Shown here piece after piece: positions 2,852-45,726 of a stretch of DNA of 64,000 nucleotides. The DNA is taken from the NCBI GenBank assembly GCA_027334565.1, contig DAHWUP010000002.1, forward strand, positions 82,240 through 146,239, read 5' to 3'. The stretch is from Candidatus Levyibacteriota bacterium. Its GTDB lineage: Bacteria > Patescibacteriota > Microgenomatia > Levybacterales > UBA12049. The notes beneath the pieces were generated by a model that was given only the letters and a program-made list of their open reading frames with translations, had not been told where the DNA came from and did not search any database. Position 1 is the first letter of the stretch, and the number at the start of each line of letters is the position of its first letter. Position numbers and translations under genes: made by a program.

Positions 2852-3769
2852 ATGAGCGTTACCAAAAAATCGATTTTATTTTTGATTATTTCCAATATTA
2901 TTTGGGGGGCCGGCTTTCCGATTTATAAATGGACCTTGGAGGCGTTAAATCCGTTTGTTTTTGCTTTCTTAAGGTTTTTTCTTGCGGCTTTGATAGTATT
3001 ACCTTTTACCTATAATAATTTAAAGATCGCCAAGAAGGATATTCCGGCCCTGATTCTGGTTTCGGTCGTGTCTATTACACTCCAGATTATGTTCCTTTTT
3101 TTCGGATTGAAGTATTCGCCAAGCATCAACGCTCCGATCATACTTTCGTCGGGGCCGATCATCTTAATAATCGCCTCTGCATTTTTTCTTAAAGATATAG
3201 TCAAACCGAAAATGCTGACGGGTACCTTAGTGAGTCTGATCGGAGTTTTGATCGTTATGTTCAGGCCTGTTATAAATAATATGAATCATATAAATCTGAT
3301 ACTTGGAAACGTTTTATTGTTTTTATCCATGCTCTGTGGGGTTGCCCAATATATGATGCTTAAGAAGATCATGTATGACAACCGACCTTTAACAATTGTT
3401 TTCTGGAGCTTTATAATCGGCTCTCTACCGCTTATTGTACCAATCTTATTTTTCAATCCGACCGGTCTACAAATGTTGACCAACATGAATTTGCAGGCGG
3501 TTTTGGGACTCTTGTACGCGACGATCTTCTCTTCGGTAGTTGGATACTGCTTTTTATATTACGGGATAAAATACATCAAAGCCTCGGAAATCGGCATTTT
3601 TTCCTATGTAGACCCTCTCGCAACGATTATAATCGCCGTTCCTCTTTTATCCGAAAAAATAACCGGGTTATATCTTTTGGGATCTTTCCTTGTATTCTTG
3701 GGAATTTTTATCGCCGAGGAAAGGATACATTATCATCCTATCCGTAAACTTTTAGAAAATGAACTCTGA
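2852..3769 (+). CDS. EamA/DMT-family drug/metabolite transporter
   Basis: About 10 TM helices, two EamA-like halves, 9 nt downstream of hisS. Confidence 0.65.
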   Translation: MSVTKKSILFLIISNIIWGAGFPIYKWTLEALNPFVFAFLRFFLAALIVLPFTYNNLKIAKKDIPALILVSVVSITLQIMFLFFGLKYSPSINAPIILSSGPIILIIASAFFLKDIVKPKMLTGTLVSLIGVLIVMFRPVINNMNHINLILGNVLLFLSMLCGVAQYMMLKKIMYDNRPLTIVFWSFIIGSLPLIVPILFFNPTGLQMLTNMNLQAVLGLLYATIFSSVVGYCFLYYGIKYIKASEIGIFSYVDPLATIIIAVPLLSEKITGLYLLGSFLVFLGIFIAEERIHYHPIRKLLENEL

Positions 3770-26182: not shown

Positions 26183-27535
26183 ATGACCATCCATCTGCCG
26201 AAACTACCCAAACTTCCCGACGCTCCGAAGCTTCCCCGACTTTTGAAAATGCCGGAATTTCCCCATTTGCGAAAAATCAGTTTTAACGTTGAATCTTTTA
26301 AGAGCATACCCCGGTTTATTTTGAAACATAAAATTTCGCTTTCGTCATTGATTTTGCTGATATTGTTCGTAACTTTTGCAATGTGGTACCGCGGATATCT
26401 TCTTTCCAAAATGAAACCCGCACCCCAGGTCAACGGCAATGAAGATTTTTACTCCTCTACGGGCAAGAATGCCGTACCGACGATAATTATCCCGACGCCA
26501 ACGATAATTAATAACAATAACAATTCCGACATATATAATAGTGCCATATACCAGACACCGACGCCTTTTCCGACCTTTCCTCCTCTGCCGACACTGGCTC
26601 CACTTCCTACAGCTACTCCTATTCCAACGACCACTACTTCAAGTTCCTCGTCCAATAACAGCAGCAATCCGAATTGCACCACAGGCGGAGGAACCCCAAA
26701 CTCATGGTATTCGGATGTTTACCCTAACCCGCCCATAACCACCGGTACCGGCTCGGTAACCATCATCGTCGATATCCGTGACTGCAACGAAAATTTAGCA
26801 CCGGTAAGCGATAATTTGAAAATTTCATTGAGCTCCGGCGATCCGAATACCCTGATTAACGGCAACAAACTGCCAGTAAACGTCAACACTCAAAACGGTG
26901 AAGTCAAATTCAATGTCAGCTCGCAGATCAATGGTTCGGTGACGCTTATCGTCCAGGATACGACCAGCAACTTTACCGTGACCGACATCAACAACCATAA
27001 TCCGGTGATAACTTTTTCGGGCAATAGTTCGGGAAACTCTAATTGCACCACCGCAAGCGGCGTTCCGAATTTCTGGTATTCCGATGTCTATCCGGCCTCG
27101 CCCATCTCGGCCAATACCGGCTCGACGGTCACACTTACCGTCAATATCCGCGATTGCAGTCAAAATGACGTATCAAACGATAACATCACCGTTACCCAGA
27201 CCTCAAGCGATTCAAGCGTTAAGATAAACGGATCGAGTTCACCAGTCAGCGCCCAGGCCCAAAACGGCGTGGCGACTTTTAACATCACTTCCCAAAATAC
27301 CGGAACCGATACTTTCACAGTACAGGATACTACCAGTAATTTTTCCATTACCGATACCAACAACCATAGTCCAAGCATCGTCTTTAGCGGTTCATCTGCC
27401 ACGCCGACACCGACGCCCACCCCGACCCAAGCTCCCGCCTCAACGGCCACGCCGACACCGACGCCCACCCCGACCCAGGCTCTTACTTCTACTCCGACCC
27501 CTACGCCGACAAACACACTTTCTCCTACTCCATAA
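26183..27535 (+). CDS. membrane-anchored surface protein with two tandem Ig-like repeats of about 124 aa and Pro/Thr linkers
   Basis: N-terminal TM LSSLILLILFVTFAMWY; repeats starting NCTTGGGTPNSWYSDVYP and NCTTASGVPNFWYSDVYP; C-terminal (TPTPTPTPTQA)x2. Confidence 0.55.
   Translation: MTIHLPKLPKLPDAPKLPRLLKMPEFPHLRKISFNVESFKSIPRFILKHKISLSSLILLILFVTFAMWYRGYLLSKMKPAPQVNGNEDFYSSTGKNAVPTIIIPTPTIINNNNNSDIYNSAIYQTPTPFPTFPPLPTLAPLPTATPIPTTTTSSSSSNNSSNPNCTTGGGTPNSWYSDVYPNPPITTGTGSVTIIVDIRDCNENLAPVSDNLKISLSSGDPNTLINGNKLPVNVNTQNGEVKFNVSSQINGSVTLIVQDTTSNFTVTDINNHNPVITFSGNSSGNSNCTTASGVPNFWYSDVYPASPISANTGSTVTLTVNIRDCSQNDVSNDNITVTQTSSDSSVKINGSSSPVSAQAQNGVATFNITSQNTGTDTFTVQDTTSNFSITDTNNHSPSIVFSGSSATPTPTPTPTQAPASTATPTPTPTPTQALTSTPTPTPTNTLSPTP
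26671..27414 (+). repeat. intragenic tandem repeat, 2 x 372 nt (124-aa Ig-like module), followed by a duplicated PT-linker unit at about 27403-27480
   Basis: aattgcaccac..ggcg...ccgaa.t..tggtattc.gatgt.tacc recurs at 26671 and 27043. Confidence 0.6.
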
Positions 27536-36427: not shown

Positions 36428-37075
36428 TTAGTATCTGTTCTTAAGCATCTTTTTGTTTCTGTGGACCCACCAGTCGCTCTCTTTATCAAAAAACCACCAG
36501 TCGTCGGACTTTGTGCCTAAAATGACCTTGGCTAAATTTTTGGCAACATCGGTTCTTAATCTTTTTACGGCCGAAGGCAGCCAGGACACCGCCCTTTTAT
36601 TACCGATATCGACCTGTTCCTTTAAAGTCAAAAGCCATTCGATATTGTCAGCATCTTTGGCAAGAATTGCTTCTTTGGATTTTCTCTTTTTGTATTCATT
36701 CAAAACGTCAAGTATTTTACCACCAAACTCCAAAGTATCCATCAGCTCTTTGATTGCCGCAAATTCATCCGAAACCGTATATTTCTGATGTACATAATTG
36801 AGGTCGCTAGTCCTGGCTTCAGCAAGGTCATGAAACAGGCACATTTGCAGTACTTTTGATGAATCAACATCCTTCTCCAAGGTTGCCAAAACATAGCCGA
36901 CGTATGCGGTTCTGGTTAAATGTTCTGAAACCGATTGTTGTCCGCTACCCAAGAAAAAGAATGCGCTTCTGGGTGTTTTGGATAATGCACCCACTTCGAA
37001 CAAAAAATTTACCACTGCCTTATTAGGATTGACTTTACCGCCTTTTTTCATAAAGGTATTGTAATCAATTTTCAA
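36428..37075 (-). CDS. HD-domain hydrolase (YfbR-like 5'-deoxynucleotidase family)
   Basis: SVSEHLTRTAY..CLFHDLAEARTSDL. Confidence 0.75.
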   Translation of the reverse strand: MKIDYNTFMKKGGKVNPNKAVVNFLFEVGALSKTPRSAFFFLGSGQQSVSEHLTRTAYVGYVLATLEKDVDSSKVLQMCLFHDLAEARTSDLNYVHQKYTVSDEFAAIKELMDTLEFGGKILDVLNEYKKRKSKEAILAKDADNIEWLLTLKEQVDIGNKRAVSWLPSAVKRLRTDVAKNLAKVILGTKSDDWWFFDKESDWWVHRNKKMLKNRY

Positions 37076-43413: not shown

Positions 43414-44160
43414 TTAACCTTCTAGTTCTTTGGCCGCGTATCTGTAATTACAAAAATCACAGTCCGGTGAACTTGGAGGTAACTGAGCGCTGTTCAAACA
43501 TTTATAGGCATTTAGGATCTCTTTCTCTACCCATGAATCATCACCGTAGTAAGGAATTATCTTTATATCGAATTCCAGTCTTGCATCAAATCTGTCAATA
43601 TCTGTTCTTCCGTTACAATATACGAAGTATCCCGTTTTGGAAACCGCAAAATCATTTTTTCTGAACAACCATTGATATACTTCCATCTGCCGCTTATAAC
43701 CGATTTGCCAATCCGCATCCAAGTTTACCTCCTCCTCTTTTGAAGTAGACTTATAATCAACAATGATAAATTCTTGCCGCGGATTTATCCAAATGTCGTC
43801 AACCCCGCCGGTAATAACAAAATTGGTATTTTTGTCTTTATAGGTTATACCTTTAAATGGATCCCTCCATTCGTTCAACTTCTCGTGTCGAAGCGGAATG
43901 GCATCGATTCCAAATTTTTTCATCAGGGGATGCTGTTCGCCTTTCTCTCGCAAAATATCAAATTCTTTTTTCAGTAATTTATCTACCGCTGAATTCAATG
44001 AAAACGGAAAACCCGGAGGTTGGGCAACACCTAATTTCCTGTCCATATAAAAACATCTTTGACAATTTAAAAAAAGGTCAAGTTTGGATCGACTTAACCG
44101 AAAGTCTCTGTCTTTTGTATACAAATTTCCTTTTCTTCTAGAATTGTAAAAGCCGGACAT
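43414..44160 (-). CDS. PD-(D/E)xK nuclease, Cas4/RecB-like with Cys cluster
   Basis: GGVDDIW..EFIIVDYKS (D..E.K core); N-terminal CQRC and C-terminal C..CDFC, the typical Cas4 4-Cys arrangement. Confidence 0.55.
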   Translation of the reverse strand: MSGFYNSRRKGNLYTKDRDFRLSRSKLDLFLNCQRCFYMDRKLGVAQPPGFPFSLNSAVDKLLKKEFDILREKGEQHPLMKKFGIDAIPLRHEKLNEWRDPFKGITYKDKNTNFVITGGVDDIWINPRQEFIIVDYKSTSKEEEVNLDADWQIGYKRQMEVYQWLFRKNDFAVSKTGYFVYCNGRTDIDRFDARLEFDIKIIPYYGDDSWVEKEILNAYKCLNSAQLPPSSPDCDFCNYRYAAKELEG

Positions 44161-44164
44161 AAAA

Positions 44165-44905
44165 TTATCCCGATTTATAGCGCCTTCCCGCTCTTTGCCA
44201 GAAGTTTACAAAACCCGCAAATCCACTGCTTTTTCCGTAACCGATAGGGCTTTTTTTCTCTTCAATTTGCAGTTGATCCCGCGCTTCCATCATGTCTGCC
44301 AGTTCTTCGACCATCTCAATATCGTCCGTCGCCTCGGAGAATTCCACAAACTCTTCTTTTATTTTTTTAGCCAAATGCCAAGGCAGCTCCTGATAGGTTA
44401 TTGTTCTAATAGAAAAAGGTATATTTTTAACTTTTAAAACATCGGTCACTTTATCCCTGACCAGCTTCGGAAGATCGGGATGTTCCTGTCCGTCCTCATC
44501 GCTTACCAGGATAATCCCCTTGGTAAAACCGCCATTGGTTATTCTTTTTGCTTTTTGTCTGTTTCTAATCCTTTCCATGGATAGGTTGGGATTTGCTTCA
44601 ATTATCTTTTCCATATCCGCAGAGATTTGTGAAAGACAGTTATCAAGTTCAACTTGGGACCGGTGATTAAACCAAGTTACGACATTCTTCTGAAGCTCTA
44701 CGCAATTTGAACCTAAGTTCGCCAATACTCCGCCTGATTGAGTTTCTGCTACCTGCGCGTTTTCAATATGTACATTATCACCGCTAATTTCCATCTTGTT
44801 TTTCATTTTAGCAGATTTTATAAGAAAATATTGTATTTTAGCCGAGGTAGTGTTAGAATACTTTCTACTTCTGTCCCAAGATTTATGCCGGCACGACATG
44901 AACAA
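44165..44905 (-). CDS. hypothetical protein, C-terminal half possibly MazG-like all-alpha NTP pyrophosphohydrolase (EEFVEF..EELAD); TTG start with SD GGAGGAG, or internal ATG at 44806
   Basis: ExxE...ExxD spacing resembling the MazG motif; 4-nt gap to the nuclease gene. Confidence 0.3.
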   Translation of the reverse strand: MFMSCRHKSWDRSRKYSNTTSAKIQYFLIKSAKMKNKMEISGDNVHIENAQVAETQSGGVLANLGSNCVELQKNVVTWFNHRSQVELDNCLSQISADMEKIIEANPNLSMERIRNRQKAKRITNGGFTKGIILVSDEDGQEHPDLPKLVRDKVTDVLKVKNIPFSIRTITYQELPWHLAKKIKEEFVEFSEATDDIEMVEELADMMEARDQLQIEEKKSPIGYGKSSGFAGFVNFWQRAGRRYKSG

Positions 44906-45256
44906 TTACCCAGTTCTCCTCCGTGGAGACTAAAACCTTTTAGAACGGAGTTTATTCTAAGGTATCCGAGTTGGGAAAGGCTTGAAAACGATATCAAAGC
45001 ACAATACGTAAACGATGCACACATGACGACCATGTTTTCGGAATATAAAGATATGTACCAACTTTTTTACAAAGCGAGAGAGGACGTACTTTTGGGCAAA
45101 GGTTCCGATGCCTTAAACTACTTCCAACGTACCTTCACTATGCCGGACGGACAACTTTATTCCCCCGAGCTTGTTGAAGCTTCCGTTCCAATATTCACAA
45201 CGGTCAGGGACGCGCTTGACGCCAGAAAAGCATCGATGAGAATCAGAACCAGATAA
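44885..45256 (+). CDS. hypothetical protein (124 aa from the first ATG; the ORF extends to a TTG at 44738, antisense to the preceding gene)
   Basis: ORF only; protein-like composition. Confidence 0.3.
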   Translation: MPARHEQLPSSPPWRLKPFRTEFILRYPSWERLENDIKAQYVNDAHMTTMFSEYKDMYQLFYKAREDVLLGKGSDALNYFQRTFTMPDGQLYSPELVEASVPIFTTVRDALDARKASMRIRTR

Positions 45257-45258
45257 AA

Positions 45259-45669
45259 TTAAAGCTTCATTGAAAATCTGACAATTTTTAATTCTTTGCC
45301 TTCGTGGAATTGCAAAGGCACCGGACGGTAACTCGGACTGACTTTTCCTATTCTTCTCATCGCGAAATCATCACTGTCATCGCTGTCGTCGATCAACAAA
45401 CACCCGCTATCCGACACGGCAATAAGCGATTCGGGTCTTATGCCATAGATATCGGCAACCGGATTTTTGGCATCAAAAACAAACAGATACGCCATTTGTC
45501 TGCCGTCTTGCCGTTTGTTGACAATTGCCATTTTTCTTCTATCCGGGGTCGGAGTGATGTAGGCAACCGAACTGACCACAGGGTCTTTTCCTTCTGCCAC
45601 CCGACTTATATCTAATTCCTGAGCTTCGATTCGTAACGACATGACGTAATTATAGAACAAATTCTGCAT
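45259..45669 (-). CDS. hypothetical protein (136 aa) with an acidic DDSDDSDD tract
   Basis: ORF only. Confidence 0.35.
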   Translation of the reverse strand: MQNLFYNYVMSLRIEAQELDISRVAEGKDPVVSSVAYITPTPDRRKMAIVNKRQDGRQMAYLFVFDAKNPVADIYGIRPESLIAVSDSGCLLIDDSDDSDDFAMRRIGKVSPSYRPVPLQFHEGKELKIVRFSMKL

Positions 45670-45726
45670 TTGTCAACTATAGGACTACTACGACTCCCGT
45701 TTTTTGACGTATGTTAGAATGATAAT

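Follow-up and report, generated by a model that had tools for sequence, protein, structure and literature searches.

We analysed a window of 64,000 nucleotides (64 kb) from a Candidatus Levyibacteriota bacterium (contig DAHWUP010000002.1, positions 82,240 to 146,239), a Patescibacteria (Levybacteria-like) chromosome segment in which the gene for a stand-alone Cas4/RecB-family nuclease lies directly downstream of a gene that we call MazG2. We read this locus as an accessory, co-transcribed cassette for a nucleoside triphosphate (NTP) pyrophosphohydrolase, sitting beside a core exonuclease gene of the solo-Cas4-like kind, and we give this reading a probability of about one half. The locus brings together variations on two known kinds of protein: a predicted COG4997 enzyme in duplicated form, and a solo Cas4-like nuclease whose cysteines are arranged 2+2. 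Below, we describe the nuclease and MazG2, their linkage in related genomes, and the genes that occupy the same position elsewhere in the Candidate Phyla Radiation (CPR), before weighing the alternatives.

Results

A near-universal CPR nuclease with a 2+2 cysteine site

The nuclease gene (43414..44160, minus strand) encodes 248 amino acids (aa). The profile PF12705 (PDDEXK_1) matches the protein with 44.1 bits against a cutoff of 22, pairing residues 21-240 with profile positions 1-243 of 247, and the motifs GGVDDIW…IIVDYKS, CQRC (33-36) and CDFC (234-237) are all present. Across 83 aligned CPR sequences, the catalytic triad D122/D135/K137 and a RecB-type QxxxY motif (Q158…Y162) are invariant, and 82 of the 248 residues are conserved at 97% or above. 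The invariant cysteines form the pattern C33-x2-C36 … C234-x2-C237; two others, C221 (94%) and C182 (90%), are conserved yet not invariant.

The AlphaFold2 model of the nuclease (mean predicted local distance difference test score, pLDDT, of 85) places it in the same company. Top Foldseek matches in the PDB were RecE, four Cas4 structures, MGME1, EXO5, AdnAB and ACE1, with E values of 1e-5 to 1e-3. The Cas4 structures (7mi4, 4ic1, 8d3l and 4r5q) matched at E 2e-5 to 4e-5 with template modelling (TM) scores of 0.38-0.45, and RecE, MGME1 and EXO5 matched equally well. A sequence search of the PDB with the nuclease gave no match. The nuclease belongs to the Cas4/RecB exonuclease clade.

Is the nuclease a Cas4? 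The 1+3 cysteine pattern is found in Cas4, AddB and Dna2, and in Cas4 the cysteines bind an iron-sulphur cluster. The nuclease resembles solo Cas4 proteins in several respects: it shares the PD-(D/E)XK core and the QxxxY motif, it has a four-cysteine site that joins the N- and C-termini, its fold matches Cas4 as well as EXO5, MGME1 and AdnAB, and no cas1, cas2 or array lies nearby. However, its cysteines are arranged as CxxC…CxxC (2+2) rather than as the C…CxxCx5C (1+3) of Cas4. It also scores only 28.2 bits with TIGR00372, far under the cutoff of 65, has no match to PF01930 at E<=1, and reaches only 27-30 bits with the PADLOC Cas4 models. A preliminary description of this locus, made from the sequence alone, had called the protein a Cas4-like nuclease with Cas4-style cysteines; the fold and the catalytic motifs bear this out, but the cysteine arrangement does not. 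We propose that the nuclease would degrade or resect DNA ends and that its CxxC…CxxC metal site would act as a structural staple.

Homologues of about 250 aa with 70-83% identity number more than 8000. Orthologues at 58-79% identity were present in the genomes of at least 584 species from CPR lineages that carry the labels Levybacteria, Shapirobacteria, Nealsonbacteria, Saccharibacteria, Gracilibacteria and others. This core, CRISPR-independent gene is near-universal in Patescibacteria and is under very strong purifying selection. Our literature search returned nothing on the family beyond one survey, which found solo Cas4 genes to be common in CPR genomes, mostly vertically inherited, of unknown function and sometimes beside restriction-modification genes, and which covered PF12705 members only briefly (Hudaiberdiev et al. 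2017, PMC5704561). Compared with the solo Cas4 and PF12705 nucleases of that survey, the conservation seen here, with 82 near-invariant residues across CPR lineages, is unusually high. The public gene call for the nuclease (P0003, 210 aa, at 3120-3752 of locus L001; L-numbers denote the loci compared) begins at an internal methionine. It omits 38 conserved N-terminal residues (44047-44160, minus strand), the first CxxC among them.

MazG2 is predicted to be a duplicated COG4997-type enzyme

MazG2 (44165..44794, minus strand) is a 209-aa protein. The 246-aa reading of the gene, which starts at a TTG at 44905, is over-extended; both the public gene call and all homologues place the start at the ATG at 44794 ('MEISG…'). 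The preliminary description had listed four open reading frames (ORFs) in this region, and all four are present, but the boundaries of three have changed: MazG2 shortens from 246 to 209 aa and the two small genes described below from 124 to 123 and from 136 to 127 aa. It had also placed the second gene 4 nt downstream of the nuclease. The 4-nt spacing is correct, but the orientation was reversed: MazG2 precedes the nuclease on the coding strand, with 4 nt from its stop codon to the nuclease ATG. Because of this spacing, we propose that MazG2 and the nuclease would be co-transcribed.

A k-mer protein search returned only MazG2 itself, and a HMMER scan of 1.84 billion representative sequences returned 95 matches, among them three full-length relatives at 36-41% identity. 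Many of the remaining matches are proteins of about 105-120 aa that align to residues 106-176, with a second stretch at about 50-100. These short proteins match PF01503 (PRA-PH) above threshold (24.5-26.5 bits) and PF03819 (MazG) just below it, and they, together with several two-repeat relatives, carry the Joint Genome Institute name COG4997 'house-cleaning NTP pyrophosphatase'. A profile of the canonical short proteins matches HisE (1yvw, E 1.5e-4) and also 7bgm, 2a7w, 1vmg, 7ody and 2gta; the matched structures are HisE, HisIE, SSO3215, MazZ and YpjD.

Two kinds of profile comparison connect MazG2 to this group. A profile built from 70 short proteins matches MazG2 in two pieces whose order is swapped, with a total E of 9e-33, and hhalign aligns MazG2 to canonical COG4997-like proteins at 99.6-99.7% probability. 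The two halves align separately: residues 25-98 to canonical positions 32-104 (97.7% probability, E 2e-12) and residues 106-183 to canonical positions 2-79 (99.7%, E 5e-26). By this profile evidence, MazG2 is a predicted COG4997-type member of the all-alpha NTP pyrophosphohydrolases, the MazG/HisE superfamily. The MazG-like assignment of the preliminary description, which pointed to the EEFVEF…EELAD spacing that is indeed present in MazG2, therefore holds.

What remains in each half is complementary. In repeat 1 (about residues 25-98), the LVRD hairpin and every acidic metal ligand are gone, while the K…NGGF strand is retained. Repeat 2 (about 106-183) retains LVRD and EExxE…ExxD but has lost the terminal K…RGGF strand, and its acidic residues E147, E148, E151, E164, D167 and E170 show little or no variation in the family alignment. 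The alignment of the two halves and the existence of relatives of about 190 aa argue that MazG2 arose by internal duplication with reciprocal loss. The swapped order of the profile matches had also suggested a circular permutation of a MazG-like domain; this was rejected, as the N-terminal half aligns to canonical positions 32-104 with the helices included. Since one copy lacks the hairpin and the acidic residues and the other lacks the RGGF strand, we infer that one chain mimics a dimer, making MazG2 a single-chain pseudo-dimer with one active site. At this sole intact, predicted site it would hydrolyse (deoxy)nucleoside triphosphates, (d)NTPs, to the monophosphates and pyrophosphate. The AlphaFold2 model of MazG2 has a pLDDT of 85 and a predicted TM score of 0.79.

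How does MazG2 compare with known enzymes? Canonical COG4997 proteins, whose full name is 'predicted house-cleaning noncanonical NTP pyrophosphatase' and whose length is about 100-120 aa, share with it the KLVRDK hairpin, the EExxE and E-x2-D-x2-E helices and the K…RGGF strand; unlike them, MazG2 consists of two fused copies, and the canonical members are unlinked to the nuclease. MazG of E. coli has two tandem MazG domains in one chain whose halves are not equivalent. The two proteins are alike in having tandem all-alpha NTP pyrophosphohydrolase domains with unequal halves. They differ in that E. coli MazG is larger, belongs to PF03819 rather than being COG4997/PRA-PH-like and lacks the reciprocal loss of terminal strands, and no sequence match above threshold was found here.

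MazG2 is linked to the nuclease within one clade

In all ten cases in which a two-repeat MazG2 gene could be located, a nuclease orthologue lies downstream of it in the same orientation, and all ten are in Levybacteria-like genomes (the window and L004, L082, L087, L088, L094, L096, L097, L098 and L153). Two further, more distant two-repeat proteins were uninformative or not linked to the nuclease. The pair recurs elsewhere, a check that the preliminary description had asked for, but it does so within one clade and against broadly conserved synteny. The spacing is 4-9 nt in two lineages; elsewhere one or two small ORFs (64-110 aa) intervene. These extra genes, which are absent from the window, occur in L094, L096, L097, L004, L098, L088 and L153 and include a family D (about 93-110 aa) and a family E (about 65-68 aa, highly charged, 45-64% identity between loci). 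In some relatives a 110-aa paralogue of gene B, a window gene described below, lies upstream of MazG2. The linked loci span at least three downstream contexts. Downstream of the pair, L088 has a histidine kinase and L153 a peptidase and hydrolases, which indicates that the linkage of MazG2 and the nuclease outlasts local rearrangement.

The reverse does not hold. In our main set of 80 species loci for the nuclease, with neighbourhoods examined within 6 kb, a two-repeat MazG-like gene was present at a single locus, L004, which comes from a Levyibacteriota genome, and no MazG-like gene was found at the other 79. Searching the 80 loci by tblastn with MazG2 and genes A and B gave no match; L004 was recognised by eye and by hidden Markov model (HMM). 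When the MazG2 family profile was run on metagenomes it returned only canonical single-domain genes. We used these as a negative control, and none of 54 metagenome loci had such a gene beside the nuclease. The preliminary description had envisaged a nuclease-plus-hydrolase module; the view of the nuclease as a dedicated partner in it is not supported, the nuclease being CPR-wide and nearly always lacking a MazG-like neighbour.

The genes of the locus also differ in how fast they change. Between the window and related loci, identity is 71-81% for the nuclease and 51-75% for neighbouring housekeeping genes, falling to 27-41% for MazG2 and to 22-34%, or below detection, for genes A and B. The cassette genes change at two to three times the rate of the genes around them.

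A variable slot upstream of the nuclease

What occupies the position of MazG2 in other CPR genomes? We surveyed the gene upstream of the nuclease at 90 loci (L002-L081 and L154-L163). At 73 of them this gene shares the nuclease's strand, at 38 it lies within 30 nt, and it comes from many unrelated families. No conserved partner of the nuclease emerged across the CPR, 71 of 89 upstream genes being singletons. At L002, the transketolase gene directly abuts the nuclease, so that the slot is empty.

Several occupants are of kinds associated with defence. Pfam assigned OLD-family ATPase-nuclease genes to the slot at four loci, with gaps of -8 to +4 nt, and also type I restriction R subunits and Schlafen/AlbA_2 proteins, and HerA-like ATPases are among the upstream genes too. 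ResIII-family, type IIG-like and DUF262-like proteins were assigned by eye; ResIII is also among the pooled Pfam matches. At L081 (114-6750), a type I restriction R subunit (HsdR), a 382-aa protein judged by eye to be DUF4297-like, a HerA (E 4e-188 to PDB 8xau) and, 3 nt later, the nuclease follow one another on one strand. Bro-N is among the genes of defence or mobile-genetic-element type near the nuclease. At least 21 of the 80 species loci have a gene of this type within 6 kb, but the count has no control gene set beside it, and the enrichment of defence genes around the nuclease is therefore suggestive only.

Nuclease homologues also occur on ten IMG/VR contigs classed as viral (L154-L163), with 37-60% identity. 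The genes around them encode integrases, DNA methylases, ResIII/SNF2 helicases, SMODS/SLATT/AGS_C proteins like those of cyclic-oligonucleotide-based anti-phage signalling systems (CBASS), PIF1 and SRAP. These contigs look like genomic islands or integrated CPR elements rather than clear phages.

Genes A and B and the surroundings of the cassette

Genes A and B are real genes with syntenic homologues. Gene A (44885..45256, plus strand, 123 aa) diverges from MazG2 across a 90-bp intergenic region (44795..44884), presumably the promoter region for both genes, in which a simple promoter scan found no consensus promoter. Its homologues are in L094 (E 2e-10, full length), L087 (2e-7), L097 (9e-7) and L004 (1e-4), and the family stands beside MazG2 in every related locus with sufficient upstream sequence. 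Gene B (45259..45642, minus strand, 127 aa, predicted to be beta-rich) converges with gene A and adjoins the glycerate kinase gene. It has homologues in L096 (E 4e-7) and L094 (E 3e-6) that share its N-terminus ('MSLRIE / MAVLIE'). Neither gene had a match in Pfam, PADLOC, PHROG or the PDB. Just 6 nt separate the ATG of gene B, at 45642, from the end of a sigma-70 promoter (45649..45676, minus strand) that matches the consensus, TTGACA-16 nt-TATAAT, perfectly at 12 of 12 positions; the public gene call of L001 uses this ATG as well. Given this distance, the mRNA would be leaderless, and judging from the promoter it is probably strongly expressed.

The 64 kb consist of housekeeping genes, including transketolase halves, glycerate kinase, aldolase and aminoacyl-tRNA synthetases, and the window neighbours of the cassette are of this kind. 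A contig of the metagenome-assembled genome GCA_021832785.1 is 99.95% identical to the window over 13 kb and identical across the region of interest. The guanine-plus-cytosine (GC) content of the cassette equals the genome background, with no compositional anomaly, and no integrase, repeats or tRNA were found at the site. No tRNA or Rfam family was detected in the window. Searches of GenBank phages with the locus by blastn and tblastn gave no match, and PHROG gave only weak ones. A gene for a YfbR-like HD-domain 5'-nucleotidase (36428-37075, minus strand), another enzyme of the nucleotide pool, lies 6 kb from the cassette.

The preliminary description had reported no cas genes or array of clustered regularly interspaced short palindromic repeats (CRISPR) here. 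We agree: the 64 kb contain no array, and the 78 window ORFs include no cas genes besides the weak Cas4 matches to the nuclease itself. A 48-nt tandem repeat of 2.3 copies at 27392-27510 lies within a coding region with a Pro/Thr-rich translation and is not a CRISPR array. The preliminary description had further called such a pairing typical of anti-phage or nucleotide-depletion modules. A scan with PADLOC-DB 2.0 lent a defence role no support, as no model matched MazG2, gene A or gene B and none matched the 29-member MazG2 family meaningfully. Among the 78 ORFs, PADLOC gave single weak matches to LmuA (1e-6), a ThsC/HIT family model (8e-8), RT-Protease_XI (1e-14, probably a PDZ protease), PDC-M35A and PDC-S09.

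Discussion

We favour an accessory NTP-pyrophosphohydrolase cassette beside a core nuclease. In one Levybacteria-type clade, the cassette would comprise the divergent gene A, MazG2 and gene B, to which relatives add one to three small genes. The nuclease would not need the cassette; in other genomes the variable slot would be empty or otherwise filled. The most likely role of MazG2 would be to adjust or sanitise the nucleotide pool in cells living on salvaged nucleic acid. The simplest reading of the survey is that the nuclease flanks a variable slot and that the MazG2 cassette is a long-resident occupant of it in Levybacteria.

Several observations weigh against this reading. MazG2 itself falls just under the cutoff for PF01503 PRA-PH (21.0 bits against 21.3), and a Foldseek search of its model against the PDB and a viral-structure library gave no significant structural match. 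All cassette loci come from one clade, and the linkage may partly reflect inherited synteny. Finally, a conflict system would account for how fast the cassette evolves, how its content varies and where it lies just as well as a housekeeping accessory would, and in other CPR genomes OLD, DUF4297-like–HerA and restriction genes stand at this very position.

Could the cassette be an unrecognised anti-phage or conflict system? A role of MazG2 in conflict with phages is our main alternative, although we consider it rather unlikely. Under this hypothesis MazG2 would deplete or filter (d)NTPs upon infection, the small proteins would sense or regulate, and the nuclease might be a DNA-degrading effector. 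Nucleotide-depletion defence enzymes such as dCTP deaminase and dGTPase act on the dNTP pool; the likeness to MazG2, on which the preliminary description drew, is conceptual only, and their folds and families are unrelated to it. The tight linkage of MazG2 and the nuclease (10/10), the fast-evolving genes and their variable content speak for conflict. So do the defence-type genes that often lie directly upstream of the nuclease in other CPR genomes, or within 6 kb of it at one quarter or more of the species loci (at least 21/80), but these counts come without a comparison to control core genes. Moreover, the PADLOC scan was negative for MazG2, its family and the two small ORFs, the cassette is vertically inherited at a fixed site in one clade with normal GC and no mobility genes, the nuclease is a core gene in lineages that lack the cassette, and canonical COG4997 genes are not linked to it. 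A broader form of the idea seems to us more doubtful still: that the CPR-wide nuclease is the signpost of a conserved hotspot for defence genes and may even take part in its work. Lineages would differ in what they put directly upstream (OLD, DUF4297-like–HerA, restriction enzymes or the MazG2 cassette), with transcription continuing into the nuclease gene. In that case the MazG2 cassette would count as a small, new anti-phage system acting on the dNTP pool, and the shared nuclease might be its effector. Given how often defence genes fill the slot elsewhere in the CPR, it is possible that the cassette, too, has a defence role.

The two genes might also be unrelated neighbours, their adjacency being inherited Levybacteria gene order and MazG2 an ordinary house-cleaning enzyme. 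Transketolase, glycerate kinase, NQR-like and sigma-70 genes flank most cassette loci in syntenic order, in relatives one or two additional ORFs separate MazG2 from the nuclease, and the nuclease works without MazG2 elsewhere. Yet the linkage has been kept where both flanks changed (L088 and L153) and while MazG2 diverged to 27-41% identity, and orientation is constant, with 4-9 nt spacing in two lineages; we think simple neighbourhood unlikely. That the cassette is a decayed phage or integrative-element remnant inserted beside the nuclease strikes us as very improbable. Phages typically carry MazG-like genes and small orphan ORFs, the small genes are orphans, a strong consensus promoter precedes a putative leaderless start, and nuclease homologues lie beside integrases on IMG/VR contigs. 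However, the site has no integrase, repeats or tRNA, the locus matches no phage by DNA or protein and PHROG only weakly, its GC equals the background, and the cassette has been kept across deep divergence. We therefore retain the accessory cassette beside a core nuclease as our preferred reading.

What does the locus mean for CPR biology? Most CPR bacteria have no CRISPR, and they probably depend on nucleotides that they scavenge. To our knowledge, the processing of DNA ends, the control of nucleotide pools and the resistance to phages are all poorly understood in these bacteria. As it stands, our finding is a tidy annotation result and brings no surprise. The near-universal and extremely conserved nuclease, with its unusual 2+2 site, is nevertheless a good candidate for a central CPR DNA-processing enzyme, and the MazG2 cassette would illustrate how a small homodimeric enzyme can be turned into a single-chain pseudo-dimer. 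Should the position ahead of the nuclease turn out to be a genuine defence hotspot, it would offer a simple positional handle for discovering new CPR defence systems.

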